Part shown: in pieces, positions 41,939 through 56,900 of the stretch
How the letters are laid out: each line of letters opens with the position of its first letter
Position numbering within the stretch: position 1 is the stretch's first letter
Assembly: GCA_003140935.1 (NCBI GenBank)
Contig: PLLJ01000021.1
Coordinates: forward strand, 4,555 to 68,554
Direction: 5' to 3'
Source: Candidatus Omnitrophota bacterium
GTDB taxonomy: Bacteria > Omnitrophota > Omnitrophia > Omnitrophales > Aquincolibacteriaceae
Length of the DNA stretch: 64,000 nucleotides
The notes under the pieces: model-generated
Seen by the model: only the letters and a program-made list of their open reading frames with translations
The model's database searches: none
Told to the model about the DNA's origin: nothing
Position numbers and translations under genes: made by a program

Positions 41939-42057
41939 GCCGAAAAGAAAGTAGCGTTGCGGGAGTTTTTTTCTTAGAATAATGTCAACCTTTTGGCCCG
42001 ATGTCCCTATTTGAAAAATAAGCCGAGTTGGCAGGAGTGGTCGGCAAAGGAGACGGT

Positions 42058-42435
42058 ATGGCGGTGAAAAAGATACTGGTCATTGATGATGATGGGGACT
42101 ACACAAAAATGCTCGAGTTACAATTGGAGGCAAAGGGTTATGAGATCTTGATCTCCAAAGATGGGGAAGAAGGGTTCGAAAAGGCTTTGGCCGAAAAGCC
42201 GCACCTGATCCTGCTGGATATCAAAATGCCGGAAATGGACGGGTTCACTTTTGTGCGGCGGCTGAGAGCCAACGAAGCGATCAAGAAAATACCCGTTGTG
42301 ATCCTGACCGGCTATGAGGCGATGAGAGATCTGTTCCGGTTCGAGGGGATCGCGGGTTACTTTGTGAAAGGGGGCGATAGGGCCGTCCTCTTCAAGAGCA
42401 TCGAAGACATACTCCTGTCCGCAGAATCCGCCTGA
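42058..42435 (+). CDS. Single-domain response regulator (CheY-like receiver)
   Basis: ILVIDDDGDYTKMLELQLEAKGYEI...LILLDIKMPEMDGF (phospho-acceptor Asp) ...PVVILTG. AAGGAG Shine-Dalgarno before the ATG at 42058. No output domain. Confidence 0.75.
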   Translation: MAVKKILVIDDDGDYTKMLELQLEAKGYEILISKDGEEGFEKALAEKPHLILLDIKMPEMDGFTFVRRLRANEAIKKIPVVILTGYEAMRDLFRFEGIAGYFVKGGDRAVLFKSIEDILLSAESA

Positions 42436-42613: not shown

Positions 42614-42643
42614 TTGGGAAAAGTGTTCTATCGGTGGTATAAT
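42614..42643 (+). promoter_or_regulatory. Candidate sigma70-type promoter with extended -10 upstream of the hyf-like operon
   Basis: TTGGGA (42614-42619), 18-nt spacer, TGgTATAAT (42635-42643). It lies ~90 nt upstream of the ATG at 42734, which is preceded by AAAGGTGG. Confidence 0.4.
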
Positions 42644-42733: not shown

Positions 42734-44761
42734 ATGGCGTTATTCTTTTATGCTCAAATTCTGCTCCATATTTTAGGAGGGATCGCGGGTTTTCTTTTTG
42801 AACAGCACGGAGAAAAGGCGAACCGCCTGACGCATGGTTTGGCTGTTCTGGCGAGCGCAGCGGGCATTCTTTTTTCACTCGGGATACTTCTGATCGGGAA
42901 ACCCTGGGCCTTAGAATGGCAGGGAAGTTTCCCTGTGGGCGCTCTGCGGTTTGTGGCGAATCCATTTTCGGCTTTTTTTCTCCTGATCATTTCTTTCCTC
43001 TCCTTGGCCGCTTCCATTTTTGCCATCGGTTATACACGGGAATTTCAAGGGAAAAAAAATATCGCTCTTTTAGGTTTTTTCTACAATTTTTTCATACTGG
43101 CCATGCTGTTCGTGGTTACGGTGCAAAATGCCTTTTATTTTCTCTTTTTTTGGGAACTGATGTCCCTCACCTCCTACTTTCTCGTGATCTTCGAACATGA
43201 AAGACCCGAAACCCGGTCTGCCGGGACGCTTTACCTGATCATGACGCATGTGGGGACCGCCTTTATTACCGCCGCATTTTTGCTCCTTTTTATCCATGCC
43301 GGGTCTTTTTCATTCGACGCATTCCGGGAAGCTGCCAGCACGCTGTCTCCGGTTCTTAAAAACGTTATTTTTCTCGCGGCGCTCATCGGATTCGGGACCA
43401 AGGCCGGCGTGATCCCGCTCCACATCTGGTTGCCCCGGGCCCACCCGCAGGCACCCAGCCATGTTTCGGCGCTCATGTCAGGCGTTATGATTAAAACGGC
43501 TGTTTATGGGCTGCTTGTGTTTCTTTTTAATTTTTTGGGGGAAACGCCCGGCTGGTGGGGACATGTGATGCTTGCAGTCGCCATTCTTTCCACACTCCTC
43601 GGCATTCTTTATGCGCTCATGGAAAACGATCTGAAAAGATTGCTCGCTTTTTCCAGTATCGAAAACATGGGAATCATCCTTCTGGGTGTCGGGATGGCAC
43701 TCGTCTTCAGAACACTTCACCAGCCTCTTTACGCAGGCTTCGCCCTTATTGCGGCCCTTTATCATGTGATCAACCACGCAATATTCAAAGGGCTTCTGTT
43801 TCTTGGCGCGGGTTCGGTCCTTTCCGGAACGCACACGCGGAACATAGAGGGCCTCGGGGGATTGATCCGGAGAATGCCCTGGACCGCCTCTTTTTTCCTG
43901 GTGGGAGCCATGGCCATTGCCGCGCTTCCGCCGCTGAATGGTTTTATAAGCGAATGGCTGACCTTTATCGCACTTCTTTTGGGATGCGAAAGCGTGAGTC
44001 CGGCCATGCGTTTTTTTTCACCGCTTTTAGCCGCGCTTCTTGGGCTTGCGGGCGCTTTGGCAGCGACTTGTTTTGTGAAGGCTTTTGGCATCAGCTTTTT
44101 AGGGAAGCCCCGCTCTGAACGCGCCGCTCACGCGCATGAAGCGGGCGGATTCATGAAAGTCGGAATGGGGATCCTGGCCGCGAGTTGTTTTGGGTTAGCG
44201 TTGACTGCGCCGTGGATTCTGCCCATGCTTGGGGAAGCGGCAAAAACTTTATCAGCCACGGATATTTCTATGACAGGGCTAACGCAAAAAGTGTTTTTAA
44301 TGTCACCCTCAGGGTCGAGCCAATTTTCTCCGCTTCTTATCGCTATGATCCTTTCAGTATTTCTGCTCGGGACCGTGATCCTTCTCCGGTTGACCTTTGG
44401 AAAGCAACATGTCCGGATCGGTCCCAGTTGGGATTGCGGTATGCCGGGACTTGAGCCCCGGATGCAATATACCGCAACGGGTTATTCCAAACCTTTGCGG
44501 CGGATTTTTTCTTTTCTCTATCAGCCGACCCGGCGCGTGGAATTGGAGGATGAAGGTCATGCCATGCTCAGGACTGCGCAGCGTTTTGAGTCAAAGATCA
44601 CCCATCACGTGGATGAATGGGTCTATCAACCTTTGTCTGAGCTTGTGGTCGATCTTTCCCGGAAGGCCAAGCAGATCCAGACAGGGCACATCCAGCTTTA
44701 TTTAAGTTATATTTTTATCACGCTGATCCTCCTGCTTCTTTTCTTCGGAGGGCGCTCCTGA
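42734..44761 (+). CDS. HyfB/HycC/NuoL-like proton-pumping antiporter-type membrane subunit
   Basis: 675 aa, ~16 TM. GTKAGVIPLHIWLPRAHPQAPSHVSALMSG is the conserved NuoL/HyfB motif. Confidence 0.8.
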   Translation: MALFFYAQILLHILGGIAGFLFEQHGEKANRLTHGLAVLASAAGILFSLGILLIGKPWALEWQGSFPVGALRFVANPFSAFFLLIISFLSLAASIFAIGYTREFQGKKNIALLGFFYNFFILAMLFVVTVQNAFYFLFFWELMSLTSYFLVIFEHERPETRSAGTLYLIMTHVGTAFITAAFLLLFIHAGSFSFDAFREAASTLSPVLKNVIFLAALIGFGTKAGVIPLHIWLPRAHPQAPSHVSALMSGVMIKTAVYGLLVFLFNFLGETPGWWGHVMLAVAILSTLLGILYALMENDLKRLLAFSSIENMGIILLGVGMALVFRTLHQPLYAGFALIAALYHVINHAIFKGLLFLGAGSVLSGTHTRNIEGLGGLIRRMPWTASFFLVGAMAIAALPPLNGFISEWLTFIALLLGCESVSPAMRFFSPLLAALLGLAGALAATCFVKAFGISFLGKPRSERAAHAHEAGGFMKVGMGILAASCFGLALTAPWILPMLGEAAKTLSATDISMTGLTQKVFLMSPSGSSQFSPLLIAMILSVFLLGTVILLRLTFGKQHVRIGPSWDCGMPGLEPRMQYTATGYSKPLRRIFSFLYQPTRRVELEDEGHAMLRTAQRFESKITHHVDEWVYQPLSELVVDLSRKAKQIQTGHIQLYLSYIFITLILLLLFFGGRS

Positions 44762-45711
44762 TGCCGGCGATCCTTTTATCCGTTTTTCAACTCTTGTTCT
44801 TGTCGATCCTGGCTCCTGCCCTTAGCTGGTTCATCAAAAAAATGAAGGCGGCCTCACAGAACCGCGTGGGACCAAGCTTGGTCCAGGTCTATTCGGATCT
44901 GCTGAAATTGTTCCGGAAGAACATGGTCATCTCGGAAACGGCATCCTGGATCTTTCATGCCATGCCTTTCGTCCTTTTTATGTCAACCTTTGTGGCGGCT
45001 TCCATGCTGCCAATCTTAGGCATCCGTTCTCTTTTTGGTTTTACGGGGGACGTGATCCTCTTTGTTTATCTCCTGGCTTTGGGGCGTTTCTTTTTAACAC
45101 TTGCGGCATTGGATACCGGTACCACGTTCGGTGGGATGGGTTCAAGCCGGGAAATGACGCTCTCTTCGCTCGCGGAACCGGCGCTTCTTCTCGCTTTTTT
45201 TTCCTTGGGTTTTCGTGCCCATACCCTATCCTTGGAAGGGATTGTTTCCTATTTTGCTTCCGGATCTCCTACTCAGATGCTGTTTTTCACAAGCCTTACT
45301 TTCGGCGCGCTGCTGATCGTAACGATTGCGGAAAGCGGAAGGATCCCTGTGGATAATCCGGCAACACACCTGGAGCTGACCATGGTCCACGAGGCCATGA
45401 TCCTCGAATACTCCGGACAGTATCTGGCTCTGATCGAATGGAGCCATCAGATCAAACAGCTGGTGTTCTTGACGCTCTTGTCGGATCTTTTCTTCCCCTG
45501 GGGGATTTCGAGTTCATGGGGCTTTCTGGCTTTTGGATTGTCGCTGGTACTTTACCTCGCGAAGGTTTTTTTTCTGGCATTTGTGATCGGATGGATTGAG
45601 ATCCATTCCGCAAAATTGCGCCTTTTCAGGGTTCCGGACCTGCTCGCGGTGGCTTTTGTTCTGGCCATCCTTTCTCTCCTGGGACAACTGATCATCGGGA
45701 GGGGAGCATGA
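44761..45711 (+). CDS. HyfC/HycD/NuoH-like membrane subunit
   Basis: 316 aa. Overlaps the upstream stop. 8-TM NuoH-like profile (..EAMILEYSGQYLALIE..). Confidence 0.75.
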   Translation: MPAILLSVFQLLFLSILAPALSWFIKKMKAASQNRVGPSLVQVYSDLLKLFRKNMVISETASWIFHAMPFVLFMSTFVAASMLPILGIRSLFGFTGDVILFVYLLALGRFFLTLAALDTGTTFGGMGSSREMTLSSLAEPALLLAFFSLGFRAHTLSLEGIVSYFASGSPTQMLFFTSLTFGALLIVTIAESGRIPVDNPATHLELTMVHEAMILEYSGQYLALIEWSHQIKQLVFLTLLSDLFFPWGISSSWGFLAFGLSLVLYLAKVFFLAFVIGWIEIHSAKLRLFRVPDLLAVAFVLAILSLLGQLIIGRGA

Positions 45712-46367
45712 GTCCGGAACTCGCGGCTTCGGCGATCCATTTTTTGGGGATGATGCTTTTGATCGCTTCTTTCTGGATCCTCACGTCTTCCCAGATCGGC
45801 ATGAGCATCCGCGCCTACGCCGCGCACTCTTTTCTGCTCGCGCTTATTACCGCGGTGATCGCGGTCACGAACCATGTGGAGCATCTGTTGGTCCCCGCGC
45901 TCTTGACGCTCGTTCTCAAGACGATCGTGATTCCGAACGTTTTTTTCAGGATCATCCGGCGGCTCGGGATCCGCAAAGAGGTCGAAAGTTATATCAACAT
46001 TCCCTTTTCGCTTCTTTTGGCCGTATTGCTCGTGTTTGTTTCGTTCTATGTCACGGGGGACGACAAGATCCTGAAGCCGGTCGCATTCAGCGAGTTCATT
46101 CCGCTCGCCATTTCGACCGTTTTTTTCGGCATGTTGATGATGACGACCCGGAAAAAGGCGATCAATCAGGTCCTCGGCCTGCTTCTGATCGAGAACGGCC
46201 TTTTTTTGATGGCCATCACCATGACCTTCGGCATGCCGCTTTTGGTCGAGATGGGGATCTTTTTCGACGTGCTGGTCGCCGTGATGATCATGGGAATTTT
46301 TGTTTTCAAGATCCGCGACGCTTTTGAAAGCATCGATGCGGATGATATGACCGTTTTGAAAGGATAA
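45708..46367 (+). CDS. HyfE-like small membrane subunit
   Basis: 219 aa and 6-7 TM. Overlaps the upstream stop (ATGA). Size and position match HyfE of hyf-type operons. Confidence 0.65.
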   Translation: MSPELAASAIHFLGMMLLIASFWILTSSQIGMSIRAYAAHSFLLALITAVIAVTNHVEHLLVPALLTLVLKTIVIPNVFFRIIRRLGIRKEVESYINIPFSLLLAVLLVFVSFYVTGDDKILKPVAFSEFIPLAISTVFFGMLMMTTRKKAINQVLGLLLIENGLFLMAITMTFGMPLLVEMGIFFDVLVAVMIMGIFVFKIRDAFESIDADDMTVLKG

Positions 46368-46371
46368 TGCC

Positions 46372-47847
46372 ATGACGATCGACAGGGTGCTTTGGATGCC
46401 CCTTATTTTTGCGTTTCTTTGTTTGATCCCTTGTCCCAAGAGGATGACGCGCCTGACGTTTATGACCGGCGCCGTTCTTTCCGCGATCGGAGCATGGCTC
46501 TTTGTTTTTGGGACATCCTGGTCGCCCCGCGTGTTTGCTTTTAACGGAAATCTTATGATGGATTCGCTGTCCGCGGTCTTTGTGCTTCTGATCACGAGCG
46601 TCGGAGTGCTTTCCGCCGTCTATGCGGGGGGATATCTCTTCAAGGAAGGGGATTCGAGCATTTCTCCTTTAAGGCTTCGCCGGTATGCTTTCTTTTTCCA
46701 TCTTTTCCTTTTTACCATGCTTTTGACCGTTTTTTCCAATAATCTTGGCATCATGTGGATCGCGATCGAGGGGACGACGCTAGCGTCGGCCTTCTTGGTC
46801 AACGTGGATGATAAAAAAAGTTCGATCGAAGCCGCATGGAAATATCTGATCCTTTGCAGCGTTGGGATCGCGCTTGCGCTTTTCGGGATCATCCTGGTCT
46901 ATTATTCGGCGATCGCTCAAGCGGTGGTAGGAGAAAGCGGTTTTTTACTGAATTGGACCTTCCTTTTGAGCAAGGCCAAACAGTTGGATCCGCAAGTTCT
47001 CCGGCTTGCCTTTATCTTCATTCTTGTGGGCTATGGCACGAAGGCAGGCCTCGCGCCGTTCCATTCCTGGCTTCCGGACGCGCACAGCCAGGCTCCGGCC
47101 CCCGTGAGCGCGCTTCTTTCCGGCGTACTTTTAAGCTGTGCGACTTTGGGGATCCTGAGGTTCCACATCCTGACCACGGCCGCGACCGGCTCCGCATTCT
47201 CAGGCACACTTCTCATTTTATTTGGGGTGCTTTCTGTAGCCGTTGCGACGCCCTTTATCCTGGAGCAAAAAGATTATAAACGTCTTCTAGCCTATTCCAG
47301 TGTCGAGCATATGGGGCTTGCGGCTGTGGGACTGGGTTTTGGCGGCGTACTCGGGATCTACGCAGCGATTCTTCATATCGTGAACCATGCATTCACCAAA
47401 TCCCTGCTTTTTTTCAGTTCAGGGCATCTGCTCCATCTTTTTCAGACCAAGGAGATCGGTAAAGTCAAAGGGATCTTCCGGAGGAATCCGTTTTTAGGCG
47501 TCGTTTTCTTTTTAGGCGCTCTGGCTATTGCCGGAATGCCGCCATTCAGCATTTTTGTCAGCGAATTTCTTATTTTGACCGCAGGATTCCTGGCCGGAAA
47601 ATTCCTTCCGTGCGTCATTTTGCTTGTTTTACTAACACTTATCTTTGTCGGTTTTCTGAGGCATGCAAACCGGATGACTTTTGGCGTTCCGGAAGGGCCG
47701 CCCCCGATCGAGGAAAAAAGTTTCTTGATGGACGGCGTTCTTGGCGTCGGCTTGATCGTGATCTTCGCGATGGGTTTTTATATCCCAGGCCCGTTCCAGC
47801 GACTGCTTTTGGAAGCAGGCCGCGTCGCTGGAGGAGTCATCGTATGA
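46372..47847 (+). CDS. HyfF/HyfD/NuoN-like antiporter-type membrane subunit
   Basis: 491 aa. GTKAGLAPFHSWLPDAHSQAPAPVSALLSG is the conserved NuoM/NuoN motif. Confidence 0.75.
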   Translation: MTIDRVLWMPLIFAFLCLIPCPKRMTRLTFMTGAVLSAIGAWLFVFGTSWSPRVFAFNGNLMMDSLSAVFVLLITSVGVLSAVYAGGYLFKEGDSSISPLRLRRYAFFFHLFLFTMLLTVFSNNLGIMWIAIEGTTLASAFLVNVDDKKSSIEAAWKYLILCSVGIALALFGIILVYYSAIAQAVVGESGFLLNWTFLLSKAKQLDPQVLRLAFIFILVGYGTKAGLAPFHSWLPDAHSQAPAPVSALLSGVLLSCATLGILRFHILTTAATGSAFSGTLLILFGVLSVAVATPFILEQKDYKRLLAYSSVEHMGLAAVGLGFGGVLGIYAAILHIVNHAFTKSLLFFSSGHLLHLFQTKEIGKVKGIFRRNPFLGVVFFLGALAIAGMPPFSIFVSEFLILTAGFLAGKFLPCVILLVLLTLIFVGFLRHANRMTFGVPEGPPPIEEKSFLMDGVLGVGLIVIFAMGFYIPGPFQRLLLEAGRVAGGVIV

Positions 47848-49421
47848 AGACGGTTTTTCAAGAGCTGAAAAAGAGACTCGGTGATGCGATCTTGGAGGTT
47901 TCTGAGGGGCCGGCGAAAGAATGGCATGTTCTTGCGCTAAAAGATTCGATTCTAAAGATCGCGGAATGCCTCATGGAAGTTTTCGGGATGCGGTTCCTTT
48001 TTCTTTCCGGTTCCGATACAAGAAAAGAAAACGGATCTTTTACTCTCCACTACATTTTTTCCTATGCTCAACAGGACCAGTTTTTAACCGTTCAAACGAA
48101 GGTTGAGGAAAAAGACCCTCGTTTCCCGTCTTTAGCCCATTTCTTGCCGAAGGCTAATTGGCATGAGAGGGAAGTCCAGGACCTTTTGGGACTGATTGCG
48201 GTGGGGCATCCGGACCCCAGGCGTCTTGTCCTTCACGAAGACTGGCCTCAGGGGCTTTTCCCGTTGAGAAAAGATTTTGGATCTCCCAAGAAGATCCCCA
48301 GGGCCGCGGGGGATTATGTTTTTGAGCGCGTCGAAGGAGAGGGGATTTTTGAGATCCCCGTGGGTCCCGTTCATGCGGGGATCATTGAGCCCGGGCATTT
48401 TCGTTTTTCATCGGCTGGGGAAAGCATCCTCAAACTCGAAATCCGTCATTTCTACACGCACAAAGGGACCGAAAAATCAGGCGAGGGGAAATCCCCCGAA
48501 CATCTTCTTTGTCTCGCCGAAAGGATCTCGGGAGATAACTCTTTAGCTCATGCGGTGGCTTGCGCTCAGGCGCTTGAGAACCTGGGACGGATAGAGGTTT
48601 CGCCTCGCGCTCAATTTCTCCGGGTTGTTTTTCTTGAAATGGAACGTCTTCATAATCACATGAGCGACATCGCGGGGATCGCTCTGGATATCGCGTTCAG
48701 TTTTGGCGCGAGCCAGCTGATGCGGATCAAGGAAACTCTTTTAAGGCTCAATGAGCGATTGGCCGGGACGCGTCTCTTGCGGGGTGTGGTCACTTTGGGG
48801 GGTGTCCGTCAAGACATCTCCGAGACTCAAAAGGAGTGGCTTATCCAAGAGATCAAAAAGATCAAAAATGATTTTGACCAGACGATCCAACTCCTTTGGC
48901 AGGTCGATTCCCTGATGGATCGGGTCGAAACAACCGGCACGATCAAGAAAGAAGTGGCGGAGGTTCTGGGCGGTGTCGGACCGGTAGCGAGGGCCTCCGG
49001 CATTGACCGCGATCTCCGGCGGGACCATCCTTACGCGGCGTATAAGGATCTCTTTTTCAGGGTTCCTGTTTTTATGGAGGGCGACGTCGAAAGCCGCATG
49101 AAAGTAAAGGCCCAGGAGGTCTATGAATCCTTCAAGCTGATCTACGACGCCCTTTATGCGATGCCGGCGGGCCCCTTGTGCGGCGCAGTCAAGCCGCTCA
49201 TGCCGTCTCAAAGCGCATTGGGCTATACGGAGTCCCCGCGAGGAGAATGCTTTCATTGGATCTCCACGGACGGTCAGGGAAAGATCTCCCGCTGGAAGAT
49301 CCAATCACCGTCGTTCAGCAATTGGCCGTTGATCGAATATGCCGTCCTGGAGAACATAGTTCCCGATTTCCCACTTATTAACAAAAGTATGAATTTATCT
49401 TATTCCGGGAACGATCGGTAA
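47844..49421 (+). CDS. Fused NuoC-NuoD-like (HycE/HyfG-type) large subunit LACKING the four [NiFe]-ligand cysteines
   Basis: Start MKTVFQ overlaps the upstream stop (ATGA), with GGAGGAG upstream. Where HycE has RxCGxCxxxH, this protein has ERISGDNSLAH. Where HycE has DPCxxCxxR, the C-terminus reads NLSYSGNDR. Overall NuoC (N-terminal) plus NuoD fold motifs (GPVHAGIIEPGHFRF, TESPRGE) are retained. Confidence 0.8.
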   Translation: MKTVFQELKKRLGDAILEVSEGPAKEWHVLALKDSILKIAECLMEVFGMRFLFLSGSDTRKENGSFTLHYIFSYAQQDQFLTVQTKVEEKDPRFPSLAHFLPKANWHEREVQDLLGLIAVGHPDPRRLVLHEDWPQGLFPLRKDFGSPKKIPRAAGDYVFERVEGEGIFEIPVGPVHAGIIEPGHFRFSSAGESILKLEIRHFYTHKGTEKSGEGKSPEHLLCLAERISGDNSLAHAVACAQALENLGRIEVSPRAQFLRVVFLEMERLHNHMSDIAGIALDIAFSFGASQLMRIKETLLRLNERLAGTRLLRGVVTLGGVRQDISETQKEWLIQEIKKIKNDFDQTIQLLWQVDSLMDRVETTGTIKKEVAEVLGGVGPVARASGIDRDLRRDHPYAAYKDLFFRVPVFMEGDVESRMKVKAQEVYESFKLIYDALYAMPAGPLCGAVKPLMPSQSALGYTESPRGECFHWISTDGQGKISRWKIQSPSFSNWPLIEYAVLENIVPDFPLINKSMNLSYSGNDR

Positions 49422-49441
49422 AAAACAAAAAGGGGTTTTGG

Positions 49442-50350
49442 ATGTTTCGAATTCTTAAAAAAAACATAGAAACGGGAAAAGTCACCCTTCCTTACGCGTC
49501 GCTTACGGCGAAAGCCACGGAAGGTTTTCTCGGCGCACCTGAGGTCGATCCCGCAAAATGCACGGGATGCGGAAAATGCGTCATGGCCTGTCCGACCAAG
49601 GCATTGACGATAGCGGATCCTTCGTCCGAGGACAAGCGCTTTTTTCATCTTTCTTATGGAGACTGCATCTTTTGCGGTCTTTGCGGGCCTGTTTGCCCCC
49701 ATCAGGCGATCTCTTTTAAAGGAAAATTCGATCTTGCTGCGCGAACAAAAAAAGAATTATGCCGGGAATTATCTTTTTCTTTATCCGACTGCCGGAAGGA
49801 TGCCGCCTTTATGGCTCAAGGGGCTTTACCGGTAAAGGAGAAGGTGAGGGAAGTCCCCGGGTTTGAGCAAGGTGATTTTGCCGGCCGGATCTCGACGGAA
49901 GAAATAGGTTTGAGATTAAAAGACAAGATCAAACGCCTTTTCGGCCGGTCGCTTCATATCCGCGAGGTTGACGCGGGTTCCTGTAATGCTTGTGAAGTGG
50001 AGATCGTGAATCTTTCGAACCCGGTTTATGATGCGGAGCGGTTCGGCGTTCATTTCGTTGCTTCGCCAAGGCACGCGGATATGCTTCTTGTGACAGGTCC
50101 GGTGACGCGGCAGATGGAGCTGGCACTCGTGAAGACCTACGAAGCAGTCCCTTCTCCCAAGCTCGTTGTGGTTTGTGGAAGTTGTGCGGTCAGTGGCGGG
50201 ATCTTCGAAGGAAATTATGCGGTGGTGGGGGGAGTGGACCGTTCCATCCCCGTGGATGTTTATATCCCCGGATGCCCTCCGCGGCCGGAAGCCATTCTCC
50301 ACGGAATTTTTCTCGCTTTAGATAAGATACCCGCAGTTAAAGAAGATTAG
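49442..50350 (+). CDS. Fusion of HycF/NuoI-like 2x[4Fe-4S] ferredoxin (N-terminal) with HycG/NuoB-like small subunit (C-terminal)
   Basis: Ferredoxin cluster motifs CTGCGKCVMACP and CIFCGLCGPVCP, then GSCNACEVE ... CGSCAVSGG ... GCPPRPE (the four ligands of the proximal [4Fe-4S]). Confidence 0.8.
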   Translation: MFRILKKNIETGKVTLPYASLTAKATEGFLGAPEVDPAKCTGCGKCVMACPTKALTIADPSSEDKRFFHLSYGDCIFCGLCGPVCPHQAISFKGKFDLAARTKKELCRELSFSLSDCRKDAAFMAQGALPVKEKVREVPGFEQGDFAGRISTEEIGLRLKDKIKRLFGRSLHIREVDAGSCNACEVEIVNLSNPVYDAERFGVHFVASPRHADMLLVTGPVTRQMELALVKTYEAVPSPKLVVVCGSCAVSGGIFEGNYAVVGGVDRSIPVDVYIPGCPPRPEAILHGIFLALDKIPAVKED

Positions 50351-50817
50351 CCGGTCTCCTGCCAGATGCTGCCTTTGCGGTCAATCTTGACAACGTTTGC
50401 GATCTTGATCTTAAGAACTATGAACTTCTTGCCCATTTCCAGTTCGTAATGATCGTGAGTTTTCCCGCTCTGGACACCTTCAATGACCCGGGTCGTGGCC
50501 ATCTTGACAAGTTTTTTATCCCATTCTTTGAAGACGTTTTTAAAGACCTTTCCTTTTTCGATCAGTTTCGCCGTGCCATTCAGGCGGTAAGCCTCGAGAC
50601 TGTCCATGTCCATGAAAGAGACCGAGACCCTCGGATTTTCCTTGAGGTTCGTTACCGTTTTTCCGAAAACATAATCAATGAGATAAATGAAATCCCCTTT
50701 GGCGCGGAAGAAGAACTTTGGGGCAGTATTCGGCCCTCCGTCCGGGGTCACTGTGGCGACCGAGACGAATTCCCGTTTTCCAAGAAGCTCGATGATCTTA
50801 TCTGTGATCGCGGCCAT
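50347..50817 (-). CDS. Pyridoxamine 5'-phosphate oxidase-like FMN-binding split-barrel protein
   Basis: 156 aa. REFVSVATVTPDGGPNTAPKFF and overall pattern match the PNPOx-like/general stress protein 26 family. Confidence 0.65.
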   Translation of the reverse strand: MAAITDKIIELLGKREFVSVATVTPDGGPNTAPKFFFRAKGDFIYLIDYVFGKTVTNLKENPRVSVSFMDMDSLEAYRLNGTAKLIEKGKVFKNVFKEWDKKLVKMATTRVIEGVQSGKTHDHYELEMGKKFIVLKIKIANVVKIDRKGSIWQETG

Positions 50818-50974: not shown

Positions 50975-52123
50975 ATGCGCGGCCTCTATGTCCACATCCC
51001 CTTTTGTCAAACACGGTGTCATTATTGCAATTTTGTAACCACGGCGGACCATTCTCCCGGTCTGCGTGAGCGATTTTTGGCAGCGGTTTCAACGGAAACA
51101 AAGCATGTGCGTGACCGTTACGGACGACTTTCATTTGACACGCTTTATCTCGGCGGCGGAACACCTTCGAGTTTGAACATTCCGGAACTGAGGCGGCTGG
51201 TCGAAGGCGTTCGTTCAGTGTTCGAGTTCAAGAACGGATATGAATTCACTCTCGAACTCAATCCGGGCGACGGCGATGAGACGAAGCTGAAAGCGTTTCG
51301 CGAGATCGGCGTGAATCGTATCAGTCTCGGCTGCCAGTCGTTCCGGGACGCGATCCTCAAAAAACTCGGCCGGAGGCATACGGTCCGGGATATCGCAGAA
51401 ACAGCTTCAAAAATACGACAAGCCGGGATCCTCAACGTCAGCTTCGATCTTATGTTGCGTTTGCCGGGCCAAACCGTCGAGGATTTTCGCGGTTCCGTGC
51501 GCCGATGCATCGAACTTAGGGCCTCACAAGTTTCACTTTACGATCTGGAGGTCCATGAGGGAACTCCGTTCGGGCAATCTCTCAAAGAGGGGGAGTTGGA
51601 TCTTCCGGGGGAAGAAGATCATGCCCGGATGTACGAAAGCGCGATCGAGATGCTCACAAGCGCCGGCTATGAACATTACGAGATCTCTAATTTTGCAAAG
51701 CCGGAGTTGGCATCCCGGCATAATCTCATCTATTGGCACAATCAGGAATATCTGGGTCTGGGTCCCGGGGCTTTTACTTATCTGAGCGGGATCCGCTCGC
51801 AGTTCGCATGGGATCTTGCGCGGTATTTTGAAAAATGTGAGGCCACAGATTGGAAAAACGACGTCGAAGACCGGCTTTCGGAAGAGGAGAAAGAGACCGA
51901 ATCTTTGGTCACGGGACTCCGGCTCTGCGAAGGTATCGCGCCCGCTTCATTTCCGAAGATCTATCCGGCGTTAAAAGACCGCCTTCAAACCCTTTATGAC
52001 GAAGGTCTCATAGAGATTTTTGGAGGAAAGAGCCGGCTCACCACTCGCGGAAAATTCCTTTCCGAGGATGTTTTCGCTTTTTTGCTCCTCAAGGGCGCCT
52101 CTTCAACAGCGACTCCCTTGTGA
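50975..52123 (+). CDS. hemW: Radical SAM heme chaperone HemW (coproporphyrinogen III oxidase-like)
   Basis: LYVHIPFCQTRCHYCNF (CxxxCxxC with the HemN/HemW-specific context), GGGTPS, 382 aa. Confidence 0.8.
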   Translation: MRGLYVHIPFCQTRCHYCNFVTTADHSPGLRERFLAAVSTETKHVRDRYGRLSFDTLYLGGGTPSSLNIPELRRLVEGVRSVFEFKNGYEFTLELNPGDGDETKLKAFREIGVNRISLGCQSFRDAILKKLGRRHTVRDIAETASKIRQAGILNVSFDLMLRLPGQTVEDFRGSVRRCIELRASQVSLYDLEVHEGTPFGQSLKEGELDLPGEEDHARMYESAIEMLTSAGYEHYEISNFAKPELASRHNLIYWHNQEYLGLGPGAFTYLSGIRSQFAWDLARYFEKCEATDWKNDVEDRLSEEEKETESLVTGLRLCEGIAPASFPKIYPALKDRLQTLYDEGLIEIFGGKSRLTTRGKFLSEDVFAFLLLKGASSTATPL

Positions 52124-53149: not shown

Positions 53150-53225
53150 TCCCCTGTAGCTCAGCTGGTAGAGCATGCGGCTGTTAACCGCAGTGTCCCT
53201 GGTTCGATCCCAGGCGGGGGAGCCA
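53150..53225 (+). tRNA. tRNA-Asn (anticodon GTT)
   Basis: Cloverleaf readable by eye: acceptor TCCCCTG/CGGGGGA, D-arm GCTC-AGCTGGTA-GAGC, anticodon arm TGCGG-CTGTTAA-CCGCA (GTT), T-arm CCTGG-TTCGATC-CCAGG, discriminator G plus CCA. Confidence 0.85.
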
Positions 53226-54803
53226 TTCCTTAACTTCCGGCGCACCAGCGCCGGAAGGGTTAGTCGTAGGTGGAAATTGCCCTTTTTGAGCTTCGTGCTC
53301 GAAGAGGGCAATTTCTATTTCTGAAGGTGTCCACGTTACCCGTTCCACAAACAAAGGCAGCAATTCCTTCATCTCCGCAGGATCAGCCGCTTCGTAGATC
53401 TGGCTGAATTTTGTCAGGGATTCATACATGATCCGGGCATTCATGGTCTGTTGCTGGATCTGCCCGATCTCAAAGTCAATATTCTGGATATCTTTCCCGA
53501 TCTGGTCTTTCTGGTCCTCAAGCTCACGAAGCTCTTCCGTGATCGATCTATTGATCTTGAGATCCGAATGGGAGGAGATGTTGTGCAGGATGTTCTTGAT
53601 CTTGCCTTTGATCCCGGTGAGCTTGATCTCCTGATGTTTCCTGTCTTTCTTTAATCCGACAAGACTGGATCCGGTATCCTTATTAGCTTCGTCTACTATC
53701 TTCTGAACCCTCTGTTTGTCGGTGCTCATCTTTTTGATCTCGCTTAATACAGCATTTTCCAGTTGGATCGCAGGCGCATACTTCATCTTGCAGGCAGATT
53801 TCCCGCTATTGGCATTGCGCGTACACTGATAGTAGTAGCAAAGTCCGTTTCTTCCGGTGCAGTACTTGGTAGACATGTAGTTTCCGCACCAGCCGCACTT
53901 AAGAAGCCCCTGGAGGAGGAACACATGCTTGACCTTCCGCTTGGGGTTGGTCCTTTTGGGAGCCTGTAGCTGGATCTTCCGGTTCACGTCGTGCCACAGC
54001 TCTTGGGTGACGATCGGAGGGTGCTGGCCGTTGTAAACTTTTTCGAGTTGCTTGATCTCCCCTAGATAAAGAGGATTGCTCAGGATATGCAGGACATTCT
54101 GGTTATAAAATGAGGAACCGCCTTTTTTAGAGTTCTTCCTTTTGGAGACGTATTCTTTTGTGCGATAACCATGCTCGTTGAGGAACTCCACGACCTTAAG
54201 GACGGAGCCCTTCTCCAGATATTTGTTAAAGATCAGGTTGACGAACTTCGCTTCCTGTTTATTTACGACAAGTTTTTTGTCGACAAGGTCATAGCCCAGC
54301 ACGTGTCCGCCATTCCAGAGCCCCTGCTGAGCCCGCCAAAGAAGCTTGTCCTTCGTTCGCTTGGAGGTCTGCTCTCGCTCCAGCTCAGCCCAGACAAGTG
54401 TCATCTTAAGCATTGCCTGCCCCATGGGAGTGGAGGTGTCGAAACCTTCCTCAAGCGAGATGAAATCGGCGTTGTGCCTTTTGAAGGTATCGCTCAGCTT
54501 GTAGAAATCAATGAGAGAGCGGGTGATGCGATCGATCTTGGTGCAGAGGACCGTGTTGATCCTGCCGTCTTTCACATCAGAGAGAAGTTCTTGCAGAGCG
54601 GGTCTGTCAGTATTCTTCCCGGACTTGCCTTCTTCACGGTAGACGCGGACCAGCTTCCATTTTGCGGAATCGTCGCTTCCCGGAACTTCACGGAATTTGA
54701 CGTACTGCTTGAGCCTGTCCGTTTGTGTATCAAGGGATCCGTCGCGTAATTCCGCCTGGCGCTCCGTAGAGACTCTGACATATAAACCGCACAGCTTGGC
54801 CAT
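53184..54803 (-). CDS. Large serine recombinase (resolvase/invertase N-terminal domain plus recombinase and Zn-ribbon/coiled-coil C-terminal regions); probable island integrase
   Basis: N-terminal LCGLYVRVSTERQ (catalytic Ser in the resolvase motif), 539 aa. The 3' end of the gene overlaps the last ~40 nt of tRNA-Asn. Confidence 0.85.
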   Translation of the reverse strand: MAKLCGLYVRVSTERQAELRDGSLDTQTDRLKQYVKFREVPGSDDSAKWKLVRVYREEGKSGKNTDRPALQELLSDVKDGRINTVLCTKIDRITRSLIDFYKLSDTFKRHNADFISLEEGFDTSTPMGQAMLKMTLVWAELEREQTSKRTKDKLLWRAQQGLWNGGHVLGYDLVDKKLVVNKQEAKFVNLIFNKYLEKGSVLKVVEFLNEHGYRTKEYVSKRKNSKKGGSSFYNQNVLHILSNPLYLGEIKQLEKVYNGQHPPIVTQELWHDVNRKIQLQAPKRTNPKRKVKHVFLLQGLLKCGWCGNYMSTKYCTGRNGLCYYYQCTRNANSGKSACKMKYAPAIQLENAVLSEIKKMSTDKQRVQKIVDEANKDTGSSLVGLKKDRKHQEIKLTGIKGKIKNILHNISSHSDLKINRSITEELRELEDQKDQIGKDIQNIDFEIGQIQQQTMNARIMYESLTKFSQIYEAADPAEMKELLPLFVERVTWTPSEIEIALFEHEAQKGQFPPTTNPSGAGAPEVKEWLPRLGSNQGHCG

Positions 54804-55036
54804 TTTTCCTCCGGGGTTGAATAATGGATCTCGATGCGCTATACTTAGCTAAGCAACAGTTATTATAAAGCATCGATAAGGAGAAATCAATCAAATGAGG
54901 AAGTTCACGTTTTGCCCCGCAATCTGCTACACTACAGCTATGATTTTATTCATGTTTGACTATCCTGTATGGACATGTTAGATTATATTTAAACCAAACA
55001 TCGAATTAAGCATATTAAAAACGTAGGATGACAACT

Positions 55037-55813
55037 ATGGATAGTCAAAAAGCAAGTAAGATAAACCAACTCATGAAAGCATGGCCGAAAGGGACTGTAG
55101 CCGTTTATAGCTGGCTGGCCTCCCAGGGGGTTTACCGCCAATTGGCCGGCAGTTATATCAAGGGATCCTGGATCGACCGGATCGGGCGCGGAGCTTTCAA
55201 GCGGGCGGGTGAAAAAGCGGACTGGACCGGCGCGCTCTATGCCATGCAGACACAACTGAAACTCTCGGTGCACGCGGCCGGAAAAACGGCGCTTGGGTTA
55301 CAAGGGTATGCGCACTATGTGCCCATGGGCGCCGGTCAGACGGTCGTTCTTTTCGGGAGTCCCACTGAGAAACTTCCGGAGTGGTTCCGGCGTTATGACT
55401 GGAAAATGAAACCGAGATACACCGCGACAGGATTCCTGGACGTCAAAAAGAGCACGGGCCTTGCCGATCACGCGCTGGGTGATTATTCGATAAAGATCTC
55501 TTCACCCGAGCGGGCGCTACTCGAGGTCTGCTACGATGTGCCTGACGAAGAATCCTATGAGGAAGCCGGTCTCTTGATGGAAGGCCTGACGACATTGCGT
55601 TCCGAGCTGGTCCGGGAGCTTCTAAAAGAGTGCCGCTCCGTCAAGGCAAAGCGCCTTTTCATGCATCTGGCTGAAAAACAGGGTCATGCCTGGGTGAAGA
55701 AGCTCGATCTCAAGAGGGTCGACTTCGGCAGTGGTAAGCGCATGATCGGCAAGCACGGAACCTATGACGCGAAATACAAGATCGTGGTGCCTGTGGCAAA
55801 AGAGGGAACATGA
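55037..55813 (+). CDS. AbiEi family antitoxin-like protein (type IV TA / abortive infection)
   Basis: The N-terminal region resembles the AbiEi_4 winged-helix domain. Immediately upstream of, and overlapping (ATGA), an AbiEii-type nucleotidyltransferase. The ATG at 55028 is an alternative start. Confidence 0.65.
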   Translation: MDSQKASKINQLMKAWPKGTVAVYSWLASQGVYRQLAGSYIKGSWIDRIGRGAFKRAGEKADWTGALYAMQTQLKLSVHAAGKTALGLQGYAHYVPMGAGQTVVLFGSPTEKLPEWFRRYDWKMKPRYTATGFLDVKKSTGLADHALGDYSIKISSPERALLEVCYDVPDEESYEEAGLLMEGLTTLRSELVRELLKECRSVKAKRLFMHLAEKQGHAWVKKLDLKRVDFGSGKRMIGKHGTYDAKYKIVVPVAKEGT

Positions 55814-56730
55814 AGAACAGCCTCTATTACAAACAAGCCGATCTTCTGATCCGCATCCTTCCGCATGTCGCGGAAGAACCCGATTTTGCCCTGCACGGCG
55901 GCACAGCCATTAATTTTTTCGTTCGCGGTCTCCCAAGACTGTCCGTGGATATCGATCTTACCTACCTTCCCGTGGAATCCCGGGAGGATACACTCCGTCA
56001 TATCGGGGAGAAACTCCGGATCATCGCGCAAAAGATCAGAAAGACCATCTCCGGAGTCAGGGTCGAAGAGAAGATCGACAAAACAAGCGGTGCCGTTACC
56101 AAGCTTTTTGCGAACCAGCAGGGAGCCCTTGTGAAGATCGAACCCAATCTGATCATCCGGGGAGCCGTTTCTGCCTGCGAGGAAAGGGAACTTTCAAAAG
56201 AAGCGAGAGACTTCTTCGAGAAATCCGTGAGCGTAAAGATGCTTTCTTTCCAGGACCTTTACGGCAGCAAGATATGCGCGGCATTGGACCGGCAGCATTC
56301 CCGGGATTTTTTCGATGTGAAGATACTCCTGGAGAACGAGGGGATCACCGACGCGGTCCGGAAGTCTTTTCTGGTCTATCTGATCAGCCATAACCGGCCC
56401 ATGTATGAAGTCCTGGCGCCTCGTCTGAAAGACCTCCGGCCTGTTTTTGAGAAAGAATTCTTGGGGATGACCCGGATCGCCGTGACCTGCGAAGAGCTCG
56501 AACGCGTCCGGAAAGAACTGATCGCGAAGGTCCGGAGCATGCTCACCCCGGATGAACGCGAATTTTTAATGTCCTTCAAGGAAAGAACCCCGAAATGGCA
56601 GCTTCTTGGGGTGGAGGGCGCCGAGCGGTTGCCCGCCGTACGCTGGAAGCTGGCCAATCTCGAAAAAATCGAGCGCGGAAAACATAAGGTCACCGTGGCG
56701 CGGCTAAAAAAAGCTTTAGAACTTTCCTGA
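55810..56730 (+). CDS. AbiEii/AbiGii family nucleotidyltransferase toxin (DUF1814)
   Basis: ALHGGTAINFF...RLSVDIDLTY is the nucleotidyltransferase GS...DxD-type motif of AbiEii. 306 aa. Confidence 0.75.
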   Translation: MKNSLYYKQADLLIRILPHVAEEPDFALHGGTAINFFVRGLPRLSVDIDLTYLPVESREDTLRHIGEKLRIIAQKIRKTISGVRVEEKIDKTSGAVTKLFANQQGALVKIEPNLIIRGAVSACEERELSKEARDFFEKSVSVKMLSFQDLYGSKICAALDRQHSRDFFDVKILLENEGITDAVRKSFLVYLISHNRPMYEVLAPRLKDLRPVFEKEFLGMTRIAVTCEELERVRKELIAKVRSMLTPDEREFLMSFKERTPKWQLLGVEGAERLPAVRWKLANLEKIERGKHKVTVARLKKALELS

Positions 56731-56900
56731 AATATCAACGGCGCAATCGGCGATCTTCCCTTCAAAAGTGGTCCTTTTTTCTATCCGTTCGCGATTAGAG
56801 AAATTTCTTAAAACTCTCCTCAAAGGGGTTAGAATACGCGCGTAGCGGCAGTGTGATAAGTAGCGGCCAACATGGAGACAATTAAAATAGGGAAGAGTGT

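Follow-up and report, generated by a model that had tools for sequence, protein, structure and literature searches.

What does a membrane complex do that is laid out like an energy-converting hydrogenase and whose large subunit has lost the ligands of its NiFe center? This question is raised by a six-gene operon at positions 42734-50350 of the window, i.e., the whole stretch of 64,000 nucleotides of Candidatus Omnitrophota DNA analyzed here. The operon very probably represents a typical member of the recognized and very widespread Ehr (energy-converting-hydrogenase-related) family, which has been defined in the literature as NiFe-less and whose function is described there as unknown (PMC6349859, PMC10284858, PMC10432482, PMC7304191, PMC7894505). 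We moderately favor the reading of a functional Ehr complex that derived from tail-less group 4 [NiFe]-hydrogenases, lost its NiFe site and acts as a ferredoxin-driven ion pump, the pumping mechanism taken by itself being put forward more tentatively.

Gene content and operon structure

Six co-directional, tightly packed ORFs make up the operon:

42734-44761, forward strand: HyfB/HycC/NuoL-like antiporter-type subunit, 675 aa (Pfam, NCBIfam, PDB sequence match)
44761-45711, forward strand: HyfC/HycD/NuoH-like membrane subunit, 316 aa (Pfam, PDB sequence match)
45708-46367, forward strand: HyfE-like small membrane subunit, 219 aa (NCBIfam, Pfam)
46372-47847, forward strand: HyfF/NuoN-like antiporter-type subunit, 491 aa (Pfam, NCBIfam, PDB sequence match)
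47844-49421, forward strand: fused NuoC-NuoD/HycE-type large subunit, EhrL-type, without NiFe ligands, 525 aa
49442-50350, forward strand: fused HycF/NuoI-like and HycG/MbhJ/NuoB-like small subunit, 302 aa

A six-gene operon of these subunit types had been described in an initial annotation and is confirmed by the ORF coordinates together with the Pfam and NCBIfam models. From the first to the sixth gene, the junctions are a 1-nt overlap, a 4-nt overlap, a 4-nt gap, a 4-nt overlap and a 20-nt spacer, the last of which, between the large and small subunit genes, contains a GGGG ribosome-binding-like motif. A 603-aa large-subunit ORF starting at GTG 47610 was rejected as an over-extension; since the homologues are 525 aa long at 100% coverage, the start was placed at ATG 47844. 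Neither frameshifts nor internal stops were found in the six genes, and compared with a 79%-identical relative their dN/dS ranged from 0.05 to 0.11, with the large subunit being the most constrained (0.052). The six genes are thus under strong purifying selection, and the complex appears to be functional.

Loss of the NiFe site

The large subunit matched Pfam PF00329 (Complex1_30kDa) and PF00346 (Complex1_49kDa), and its best PDB sequence match was E. coli HycE (7z0s_E, E 3.3e-91). Its AF2 model (pTM 0.86) resembled HycE with a TM of 0.90 and E. coli NuoCD with a TM of 0.84. In the stretches that belonged to the former active site (aa 147-206 and 519-525), the pLDDT fell below 50, so that the pocket geometry is not readable from this model. 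Two remnants of the NiFe motifs were located by alignment with HycE and in the raw codons:

48522-48551, forward strand: L1 motif remnant, R227-I-S229-G-D231-N232-S-L-A-H236
49386-49418, forward strand: L2 motif remnant, S-M-N-L-S519-Y-S-G522-N-D-R525, followed by the stop codon

Where HycE has RVCGICGFAH and DPCYSCTDR, the large subunit has RISGDNSLAH and NLSYSGNDR, so that S229, N232, S519 and G522 stand in place of the four NiFe-ligating cysteines, and the claim that every NiFe ligand had been lost is borne out. The protein ends at R525, which pairs in the alignment with R549, the final HycE residue in the numbering of the tagged chain, and it has no C-terminal maturation tail; according to the literature, the HycE tail that is cleaved by HycI begins at this position. 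Because the NiFe site is lost, the complex cannot make or consume H2.

The JGI annotation "Ni,Fe-hydrogenase III large subunit" would agree with a genuine [NiFe]-hydrogenase whose codons were misread, or with a pseudogene operon in decay, but the evidence refutes this reading and leaves it with virtually no probability. The codons at the former cysteine sites are TCG, AAC, TCT and GGG, so that restoring the four cysteines would take at least 6 base changes, and 13 contigs assembled independently of one another (ENA, JGI, Logan) encode the identical large-subunit protein. Decay is opposed by the intact reading frames and the low dN/dS, and the same replacements recur in hundreds of homologues. 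The replacement motif, R-I/V-S-G-D-x-S…H and S-x-N-L-S-Y-S-G-N-D, spans more than 15 bacterial and archaeal phyla and was present in 120 of the 120 closest homologues, in 69 of 82 large subunits from genome loci and, after clustering at 50% identity, in about 160 representatives. Among 160 cysteine-less homologues, the L1 positions were S in 88%, G in 96%, D in 85% and H in 76%, with the position between this D and the H being variable (S/T/N/E); the L2 positions were S in 96%, Y in 90%, G in 94% and D in 100% of 159 such homologues. Asp at position 231 is enriched in the cysteine-less forms, the hydrogenase sisters having Ala/Val. Besides the cysteine positions, only two columns (282 and 489) distinguished the cysteine-less proteins from their cysteine-bearing sisters at an 80% conservation threshold, and E182 and many Arg, Asp and Glu residues reached a conservation of 95% or more in either group. 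The change relative to the hydrogenase sisters appears to be confined to the metal site.

Membrane subunits and Fe-S clusters

The HyfB-like subunit carries PF00361 (Proton_antipo_M, E 2.8e-56), exceeds the cut-off of the NCBIfam HyfB equivalog (742.7 versus 667 bits), has HycC as its best solved relative (7z0s_C, E 6.8e-72) and retains the channel-type charged residues E141, K223, H230, K254 and K352. The HyfF-like subunit likewise carries PF00361 (E 1.2e-55) and the conserved residues E133, K224, H231 and K343; its top NCBIfam matches were HyfF models and its best solved relatives MbsH (6u8y_H) and MbhH (6cfw_H). The proposed count of three antiporter-like subunits has to be lowered, as only these two have the Proton_antipo_M fold. 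The HyfE-like subunit aligned at residues 9-219 with positions 6-216 of the 216 in NCBIfam NF008556 (E 3.3e-30, under the curated cut-off) and with Pfam Oxidored_q2 (E 1.1e-4), and has a NuoK-like C-terminal part with two membrane glutamates, E162 and E181; a search by sequence for a solved homologue found none. The HyfC-like subunit, which connects the peripheral to the membrane arm, matched PF00146 (NADHdh, NuoH-like, E 4.6e-41).

The small subunit contains two Fer4 domains and PF01058 (Oxidored_q6), arranged as a 2x[4Fe-4S] ferredoxin part (aa 1 to ~120), a linker (~120-160) and a NuoB-like [4Fe-4S] part (~163-297). NCBIfam HycF/HyfH models cover residues 1-119, and the PDB matches were MbhJ (E 2e-44), HycG (E 1.2e-41) and, for residues 1-119, HycF (7z0s_F, E 2.9e-22). 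All 12 Fe-S cysteines are retained, eight in two CxxCxxCxxxCP motifs (C40/43/46/50 and C75/78/81/85) and four in the NuoB domain (C181/184/248/278), in line with the earlier claim that the electron-input module had kept its ligands.

The two Mrp/Nuo antiporter-type subunits with their charged residues intact could also form a redox-silent, Mrp-like cation/proton antiporter, in which the peripheral arm would be structural or regulatory only and would undergo no catalytic electron turnover. Such an antiporter would fit with the lack of an identifiable acceptor site and with the tolerance of some lineages to losing the HycF domain and the ligands of one cluster. The 12 retained cysteines, the large subunit as the most strongly constrained component, the pocket replacements that are conserved rather than drifting and the NuoB-type cluster ligands kept in all ~35 aligned family small subunits make it very improbable.

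Genomic neighborhood

Pfam searches of essentially all ORFs of at least 90 aa in the 64 kb detected no hyp, hycI, fdh, hyfA, hycB or nuoEFG genes, which upholds the reported absence of maturation and formate dehydrogenase/HyfA-type genes from the window. Two features lie directly upstream of the operon:

42028-42435, forward strand: stand-alone response-regulator receiver protein (PF00072)
42614-42643, forward strand: sigma-70-like promoter candidate, TTGGGA-18 nt-TATAAT with TG upstream (consensus match), ~90 nt before the first gene

The promoter candidate is weak, the region having two such sites where chance alone would give 6.2, and no Rfam elements were found in the 299-nt gap upstream of the first gene. 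Whether the receiver protein belongs to the six-gene unit is uncertain; its gene is missing at the locus of the 79%-identical relative, and although some distant loci have a receiver protein no more than a few kb away, its position is not fixed.

In E. coli FHL (7z0s), HycF takes electrons from HycB-FdhF. With this precedent, the complex might serve a dehydrogenase encoded elsewhere as docking site and ion pump, for instance in an FDH-Ehr supercomplex, and would receive its electrons from this partner enzyme instead of free ferredoxin. An FDH-Ehr association has been hypothesized for Riflemargulisbacteria and Saganbacteria (PMC6349859), and formate raises the abundance of all Geobacter Ehr subunits (PMC7894505). 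We consider this quite improbable for the present operon, given that fdh, hycB and nuoEF-like genes are absent from the window and that no conserved partner dehydrogenase recurs beside the operon across 80 loci or at the Methanoperedens locus. Judged by its gene neighborhood, the operon appears to be a stand-alone module.

Electron acceptor and proposed mechanism

Minimal complex-I-like operation has been proposed for Fpo without FpoF and for cyanobacterial NDH-1, and Methanoperedens has been reported as a menaquinone user. The initial annotation had suggested menaquinone as a possible acceptor, and the corresponding reading is a ferredoxin:menaquinone oxidoreductase, i.e., a minimal complex I that pumps ions and reduces menaquinone in a cavity between the large subunit, the small subunit and HyfC. 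The MqnA/MqnD-type gene (11739-12626) is real and indicates menaquinone synthesis by the organism, NuoB, C, D, H, K, L and N all have homologues among the subunits, the large subunit folds like NuoCD, and the closest homologues outside Omnitrophota are those of Methanoperedens. However, the mqn gene is unlinked, 31 kb from the operon, and the quinone His and Tyr of NuoD (7q5y_B alignment) are replaced by Ile181 and Gly230. The beta1-beta2 loop (IIEPGHFRF) is of the hydrogenase type and does not differ from the loop of the cysteine-bearing sisters, the large subunit scored 212.8 bits against the NuoD model (cut-off 360), at E<1e-8 the HyfC-like subunit had HycD (7z0s_D, E 9.6e-37) and MbhM (6cfw_M) as its only matches of solved structure, with no NuoH, and NuoA and NuoJ genes are absent. 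Acetobacterium and the CPR bacteria are known to lack quinones. Cysteine-less Ehr loci were found in Acetobacterium and in several CPR/Patescibacteria genomes (see also PMC7304191), and cysteine-less members are present in Riflemargulisbacteria, in which a quinone pathway was not found (PMC6349859). Because the family also occurs in such lineages, menaquinone as acceptor is unsupported, and the reading is unlikely. Protons are thus not the acceptor of the Ehr complex, and a quinone bound as in complex I is probably not the acceptor either.

For the ferredoxin-driven ion pump, a soluble carrier of low potential, for which ferredoxin is the likeliest candidate by analogy with MBH and Ech, would dock on the fused small subunit at its N-terminal half, which resembles a ferredoxin. 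Electrons would pass through the two [4Fe-4S] clusters of this domain to the NuoB-type [4Fe-4S] cluster, and then reach an acceptor in a remodelled, small, polar pocket (S229, G230, D231, N232, H236, S519, Y520, G522 and D524) where the large subunit, small subunit and HyfC meet. The redox and protonation change could be relayed by the unchanged beta1-beta2 loop (E182-P-G-H-F-R-F) via HyfC and HyfE to HyfF and HyfB, whose modules would transport H+ or Na+ across the membrane; in reverse, an ion gradient might drive ferredoxin reduction. This input route would not be family-wide, because the HycF-like domain is missing from many members and, in the acidobacterial fusions, one ferredoxin cluster no longer has its cysteines.

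Comparison with other Ehr complexes and hydrogenases

The complex had been proposed to be of the Ehr type, related to group 4 hydrogenases and complex I but lacking NiFe, and this assignment stands. The layout, which had been called unusual, is the family norm: the order HyfB-HyfC-HyfE-HyfF-large subunit(-small subunit) was found in nearly all of 80 related loci long enough to display it, from more than 15 phyla, and the named subunits of Geobacter Ehr agree with it. Nor is the HycF-HycG fusion exceptional, as Acidobacteriota, Bacillota, Thaumarchaeota and other lineages have fused small subunits as well; in Methanoperedens, two separate HycF- and HycG-type genes share a 4-nt overlap, which makes fusion an easy, repeated event. 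The C-terminal tail is absent from all cysteine-less homologues and from their cysteine-bearing sister clade. A position between hydrogenase and complex I, as formerly suggested, is not supported, since no complex-I-specific features were found and the nearest relatives, at 49% identity, are large subunits of the group 4 hydrogenase type that have the cysteines but no tail, for which reason the Ehr complex seems to be a derived offshoot of the hydrogenases and not a step towards complex I.

Subunit composition of the operon

The six genes on the forward strand at 42734-50350 encode a membrane complex of the energy-converting-hydrogenase-related (Ehr) type, a NiFe-less relative of the group 4 [NiFe]-hydrogenases. 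All six open reading frames of the initial annotation were found, and the Fe-S ligands that it described as kept are present at all 12 cysteine positions.

Features of the operon and its upstream region, in gene order
42614-42643: sigma-70-like promoter candidate, by consensus match only
42734-50350, forward strand: six-gene operon, comprising
forward strand, 675 aa: HyfB/NuoL-type antiporter-like subunit, passing the curated NCBIfam HyfB equivalog cut-off
forward strand, 316 aa: HyfC, NuoH/HycD-type subunit (Pfam/NCBIfam)
forward strand, 219 aa: HyfE-type subunit, matched full-length by the HyfE model, with a NuoK-like C-terminal half
forward strand, 491 aa: HyfF/NuoN-type antiporter-like subunit (Pfam/NCBIfam)
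47844-49421, forward strand, 525 aa: large subunit, fused NuoC-NuoD (Pfam/NCBIfam)
forward strand, 302 aa: small subunit, two 4Fe-4S ferredoxin motifs followed by a NuoB domain

The junctions are, in gene order, a 1-nt overlap, a 4-nt overlap, a 4-nt gap, a 4-nt overlap and a 20-nt spacer with a GGGG ribosome-binding-like motif before the small-subunit gene, a packing typical of a translationally coupled operon. No known RNA element was detected by an Rfam scan of the 299-nt gap upstream. The large subunit starts at ATG 47844, overlapping the hyfF stop; a longer ORF from GTG 47610 was rejected as an ORF-listing artefact, all close homologues being 525 aa.

The small subunit retains both CxxCxxCxxxCP motifs (C40-C50 and C75-C85) and the NuoB-type ligands C181, C184, C248 and C278, all four in register with the corresponding cysteines of MbhJ and HycG. 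Together with the NuoH-like and antiporter-like membrane subunits, this small subunit with a proximal [4Fe-4S] cluster is the set that a functional group 4 hydrogenase has, and the NuoB-like, NuoH-like, HyfE-like and NuoL/N-like proteins likewise correspond to the Ehr subunits (EhrS, B, C, A, D). The antiporter fold is confined to HyfB and HyfF, giving two modules instead of the three counted initially. Characteristic antiporter residues are kept in both HyfB (E141, K223, H230, K254 and K352) and HyfF (E133, K224, H231 and K343), and HyfE contains two membrane glutamates, E162 and E181. A Pfam search of essentially all ORFs of at least 90 aa in the 64-kb window revealed no hyp, hycI, fdh, hycB/hyfA or nuoEFG gene, in line with the earlier remark that maturation and formate dehydrogenase or HyfA partner genes are missing.

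Loss of the metal site

In the alignment to HycE (7z0s_E), the L1 motif R-V-C-G-I-C-G-F-A-H is represented by R227-I-S-G-D-N-S-L-A-H236 and the L2 motif D-P-C-Y-S-C-T-D-R by N-L-S519-Y-S-G522-N-D-R525, so that all four NiFe-ligand cysteines are replaced (S229, N232, S519 and G522). The Cys pairs of functional group 4 hydrogenases, in RxCGxCxxxH and in the L2 pattern D/L-P/x-C-x-x-C-x-D/E-R, are thus both absent. The codons at the former Cys positions are TCG, AAC, TCT and GGG, and regaining the four cysteines from them would take a minimum of six substitutions; alignment and codons together bear out the initial proposal that every NiFe ligand is lost. The large subunit ends at R525, opposite the last HycE residue in the alignment, which according to the literature is the point at which the HycI-cleaved tail of HycE starts. 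As the protein stops there, it has no maturation tail to cleave.

Thirteen contigs of independent assemblies (ENA, JGI and Logan) encode the identical 525-aa protein, and the L1/L2 cysteines are absent from all of them, so that a sequencing error of the kind considered initially does not account for their loss. All six genes show dN/dS of 0.05-0.11 against a 79%-identical relative, the large subunit being the most constrained (0.052), values that are approximate because dS is near saturation. Sequencing error and pseudogenisation are excluded by the identical protein on these contigs and the low dN/dS. Synteny with the same relative covers an MFS gene, an SDF symporter gene, the operon, a PNPOx gene and a HemN-like gene.

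Distribution and gene order of the family

The best 120 homologues of the large subunit belong to Candidatus Omnitrophota (61-90% identity) and then to ANME-2d/Methanoperedens archaea (about 52%). The four cysteines are missing in 120 of 120, which all have R-[IV]-S-G-D-N-S-x-A-H and S-[LM]-[NS]-L-S-Y-S-G-N-D-[RM] in common. An exhaustive HMMER search of 1.8 billion representatives returned 10,904 relatives at E<=1e-3, the top match in this library, which is clustered at 50%, being a tail-less large subunit with all four Cys at 49% identity; tailed HycE/HyfG-like forms appeared only from about 37% identity.

A genome scan with one genome per GTDB species gave at least 80 loci, with no Omnitrophota genome among the matches listed. 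The listed loci cover more than 15 phyla, including Methanosarcinales, Methanomassiliicoccales, Thaumarchaeota, Acidobacteriota, Nitrospirota, Rokubacteria/Methylomirabilota, Chloroflexota, Bacillota (including Acetobacterium), Patescibacteria, Gammaproteobacteria and others. Where a listed locus is long enough to reveal the gene order, this is nearly always HyfB-HyfC-HyfE-HyfF-large subunit, with the small-subunit gene directly after the large subunit or directly before hyfB. Cysteines are lost with the same kind of replacements in 69 of the 82 large subunits of the listed loci, all four are kept in 11 loci, and a C-terminal tail was found in none of the 82. The hyf-like layout, initially thought unusual, is therefore the norm of the family in the listed loci.

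The fusion of HycF- and HycG-like parts, also taken as unusual at first, recurs in Acidobacteriota, Bacillota, Thaumarchaeota, Chloroflexota and other lineages. The ferredoxin and NuoB genes are separate in Methanoperedens, where they overlap by 4 nt, and in the closest Cys-bearing relative; given this overlap, losing one stop codon is enough to fuse them. Both sets of ferredoxin-cluster ligands are complete in the subtype of the window, acidobacterial fusions are short of one set, and the HycF-like part is absent altogether in many lineages. The locus is thus an ordinary member of a very large and already named family, with no new architecture, and its recognition as Ehr-type in the initial annotation was correct, since the Cys-less large subunit and the subunit set match the definition.

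Phylogenetic placement and structure prediction

In a neighbour-joining (NJ) tree the large subunit falls inside a 154-member Cys-less group, adjoined by a 34-member tail-less group in which almost all members bear the cysteines; the tailed 4a-like proteins lie outside. The union of both tail-less groups against the tailed 4a-like forms received moderate support (73 of 100 NJ bootstraps). The tree contains one large Cys-less group and a smaller separate one, with internal exact-clade nodes at bootstraps of 2-9%, so that the grouping of the window protein with Cys-less sequences, and not with Nuo or canonical hydrogenases, has weak inner nodes, and the cysteines may have been lost either once or several times. 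A position inside canonical NuoD, which had been considered at the outset as evidence against an Ehr identity, is not supported by this placement or by the score against the NuoD model NF004739 (212.8 bits versus a cut-off of 360); the FpoD model likewise gave 169.4 bits versus a cut-off of 600.

The AlphaFold2 (AF2) model of the large subunit (pTM 0.86) has a TM score of 0.90 to HycE and of 0.82-0.86 to E. coli NuoCD, with pLDDT below 50 in the beta1-beta2 loop and the C-terminal motif; no solved structure closer than HycE was found in the PDB to April 2026. The predicted fold agrees with placement as a hydrogenase offshoot. The description that fits the complex best is a derived side branch of the tail-less group 4 hydrogenases, with which it has its gene order in common. 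The earlier view that it sits between hydrogenase and complex I had to be given up, because it has no complex-I-specific character and its nearest relatives are of hydrogenase type.

The closest homologues of the large subunit outside Omnitrophota are archaeal (ANME-2d/Methanoperedens and Methanomassiliicoccales; loci L001-L003 and L088 of the genome scan), at 51-53% identity and with the same S-G-D-N-S motif. This archaeal preference is not mirrored by HyfB, and inter-domain transfer of the whole operon or of a part of it is possible.

The remodelled pocket and the electron acceptor

Between 159 Cys-less and 33 tail-less Cys-bearing large subunits, the columns that differ consistently at a threshold of 80% conservation are 229, 519 and 522 (232 being variable), D282 and P489. 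In addition, an Asp is gained at 231 in 85% of the Cys-less forms, the Cys-bearing ones having Ala or Val. Conservation reaches 95% or more in every group at E182, within the invariant I-I-E-P-G-H-F-R-F loop, and at about 35 further positions occupied by charged residues or glycine. With so few differing columns and the E182 loop conserved, the scaffold coupling the active site to the membrane arm is therefore untouched, and the metal site alone appears to have been turned into a small, polar and itself conserved pocket.

The initial annotation proposed menaquinone as the acceptor on account of an MqnA/MqnD-type gene in the window (11739-12626). The gene is real, and lies 31 kb from the operon; we consider a quinone acceptor, at a non-canonical site in the subclade of the window, to be unlikely. 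The His (GPxHPxxHG) and Tyr (DRxDY) that bind the quinone headgroup in NuoD align to Ile181 and Gly230 when compared with Aquifex NuoCD2 (7q5y_B), and the loop bearing the quinone His is present in its hydrogenase version. The large subunit stays well below the NuoD and FpoD thresholds, HyfC matches only HycD and MbhM among solved chains and is not detectably closer to NuoH, and NuoA and NuoJ are absent. Acetobacterium and CPR bacteria are generally known to be without quinones. Cys-less members were found in the genomes of both (genome scan; PMC7304191), and they are also known from Riflemargulisbacteria, in which no quinone pathway was found (PMC6349859), which also counts against a quinone.

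The most economical reading is that the complex would be an ion-translocating oxidoreductase. Building on the subunit anatomy and conservation recorded in the data, we infer its donor, acceptor, ion and direction. The two ferredoxin-domain clusters would receive electrons from reduced ferredoxin, as in MBH and Ech, the closest characterised relatives of the ferredoxin type, or possibly from a partner enzyme. From these clusters electrons could reach the NuoB-type cluster and leave to an acceptor in the remodelled pocket. The resulting changes would drive H+ or Na+ movement via HyfC, HyfE, HyfF and HyfB, and the process may also run in reverse.

A more far-reaching idea, to which we give only a small chance, is that the polar pocket (Ser-Gly-Asp-x-Ser…His and Ser-Tyr-Ser-Gly-Asn-Asp), one electron-transfer step from the intact [4Fe-4S] cluster, might serve as a catalytic site of a new kind, perhaps for a small soluble substrate or with another metal bound. 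In that case Ehr would form a class of its own among ion-pumping oxidoreductases, with a chemistry unlike H2, quinone or polysulfide reduction, and the fused ferredoxin domain with all its ligands would mark a self-contained, ferredoxin-driven Omnitrophota/Methanoperedens subtype.

Genomic neighbourhood and other features of the window

Clustering of 765 ORFs in the flanks of the at least 80 listed loci revealed no recurring dehydrogenase or hyp gene. The only ORFs that recur there encode an ArsR-type regulator, seen at 13 loci, receiver-domain proteins, seen at 10 loci without a fixed position, and separate HycF-like proteins. An ArsR/SmtB-type helix-turn-helix regulator lies 1-107 nt upstream of the Ehr-type operon in many distant phyla (L025, L033, L040, L041, L050, L054, L058, L076 and other scan loci) and in others at up to about 2 kb upstream, which makes 13 of the listed loci altogether. 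These loci mirror M. tuberculosis, in which the ArsR/SmtB protein Rv0081 is directly upstream of the Ehr genes. A stand-alone receiver-domain protein (42028-42435) takes the place of this regulator in the window. Two Nitrospirota loci, L045 and L068, contain two complete Ehr-type operons in tandem on the same strand, and their pocket signatures differ (R-V-S-G-T-S-S-F-A-H versus R-V-S-G-D-T-T-V-A-H).

A PNPOx-like flavin-binding gene (50347-50817, reverse strand) converges on the operon, overlapping the small-subunit stop by 4 nt, and is followed by a HemN-like radical SAM gene (50975-52123, forward strand). Both neighbours are kept in the 79%-identical relative, with an amino-acid permease gene inserted, and their adjacency probably reflects lineage synteny, not a functional link.

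Elsewhere in the window, an uninterrupted ORF of 3744 aa (460-11694, forward strand) has only a class-I methyltransferase domain at aa 2959-3117 by Pfam, the rest having no family match. A tRNA-Asn(GTT) gene (53150-53225) abuts a large serine recombinase gene (53184-54803, reverse strand), beyond which are an AbiEi/AbiEii toxin-antitoxin pair (55028-56730), a CBS-domain protein, a 478-aa protein of unassigned function, an OLD-family AAA/TOPRIM nuclease (59810-61561) and a SocA/Panacea antitoxin (62612-63295). GC content falls from about 0.51 to 0.35-0.40 past 58 kb, and the region 53150-64000 looks like a tRNA-integrated mobile or defence island.

Significance

Few respiratory-type membrane complexes without an assigned function are as widespread as Ehr, which is present in M. 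tuberculosis, nitrifiers, Geobacter, ANME archaea, CPR and Omnitrophota. The literature up to 2026 gave only genomic and proteomic mentions in a search for functional or structural work on them. The window locus is a clean and complete example, with six genes, all Fe-S ligands, a fused electron-input domain and no partner genes, although a locus in an uncultured Omnitrophota bacterium alone makes Ehr function no more testable. The comparison narrows the problem, as essentially all that separates Ehr from hydrogenase lies at the metal site, the replacements there are conserved and a complex-I-style quinone site is lacking. The large subunit carries the public names "NADH-quinone oxidoreductase subunit C" (NCBI) and "Ni,Fe-hydrogenase III large subunit/component G" (JGI). 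Such names mislead metabolic reconstruction and should not be taken as a sign that Omnitrophota genomes encode H2 metabolism or complex I.

Comparison with known systems

Ehr is defined by a large subunit homologous to those of group 4 hydrogenases and NuoD but without the NiFe-binding Cys (PMC6349859, PMC10284858, PMC7304191), as is the case for the window protein. Subunits of the Geobacter sulfurreducens complex GSU0739-45 have been named EhrA-1, EhrC, EhrL and EhrS (PMC7894505), and Ehr has been reported from the M. tuberculosis "hyc" locus (Rv0081-87/Rv0082-Rv0087), comammox Nitrospira (near group 4f), ammonia-oxidising archaea, CPR bacteria and Margulisbacteria (PMC6728331, PMC10284858, PMC10432482, PMC7304191). 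The window locus shares with these systems the Cys-less large subunit, the NuoB-like small subunit with an intact cluster, the NuoH-, HyfE- and NuoL/N-like proteins in one operon and the lack of an NADH module. It differs in the fusion of ferredoxin and small subunit with both clusters, whereas many loci (Nitrospira, Rokubacteria) have a NuoB-like protein only, often before hyfB. The M. tuberculosis locus presumably also has the NuoB-like protein only. Further differences are Asn at the second Cys position (the S-G-D-N-S subtype, common to Methanoperedens), a terminal Arg instead of the commoner Leu, and the absence of the ArsR-type regulator found directly upstream elsewhere.

The tail-less Cys-bearing loci of Thermincola, Ectobacillus, Desulfotomaculum and Chloroflexota, which probably belong to HydDB group 4f, have the same HyfB-C-E-F-G-(H)-I order, no tail and an identical beta1-beta2 loop, and their large subunits are 43-49% identical to that of the window, but all four Cys are kept (R-x-C-G-x-C…H and L-C-Y-x-C-x-D-R). 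Since Pfam found no hyp genes in the flanks of two such loci (L044 and L056), gene neighbourhood does not discriminate the Cys-bearing from the Cys-less type.

E. coli formate hydrogenlyase (Hyc, 7z0s) provides the best solved relatives for four of the six proteins (HycE, HycC, HycD and HycF). The large subunit matches HycE at E 3.3e-91, compared with 8e-45 for MbhL and 1.9e-25 for MbsL (6u8y_L), NuoD/NuoCD also being far behind; for the NuoB domain of the small subunit, MbhJ is best (E 2e-44) and HycG second (E 1.2e-41). Gene order is that of hydrogenase-4 (Hyf), hyfBC-EFGHI. Unlike Hyc and Hyf, the locus lacks NiFe ligands and a HycI tail, HycF and HycG are fused, and HyfA/HycB, HyfD, HyfJ, HycH, HycI, FdhF and FhlA are absent from the 64-kb window. 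Of the hyfABCDEFGHIJ-hyfR-focB set, the locus has only the equivalents of B, C, E, F, G and H+I; it lacks A, D, J, R and FocB.

The NuoB, C, D, H, K, L and N modules of complex I, NDH-1 and Fpo have homologues in the operon, with NuoC and NuoD fused as in E. coli (TM 0.84), but the window lacks NuoA, J, M, E, F and G and has six genes compared with 11 or more subunits. Pyrococcus MBH (6cfw) and MBS-Mbx (6u8y) contain a full Mrp-type module of many small subunits that has no counterpart in the window, and the combination of MbsA-G with MbsL that characterizes MBS/Mbx is accordingly not found. Both are nevertheless relatives that are driven by ferredoxin, translocate ions and have a wire of three clusters. 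Among solved structures HyfF is matched best by MbsH and MbhH, and MBS sets the precedent of a complex derived from hydrogenases whose substrate is not protons.
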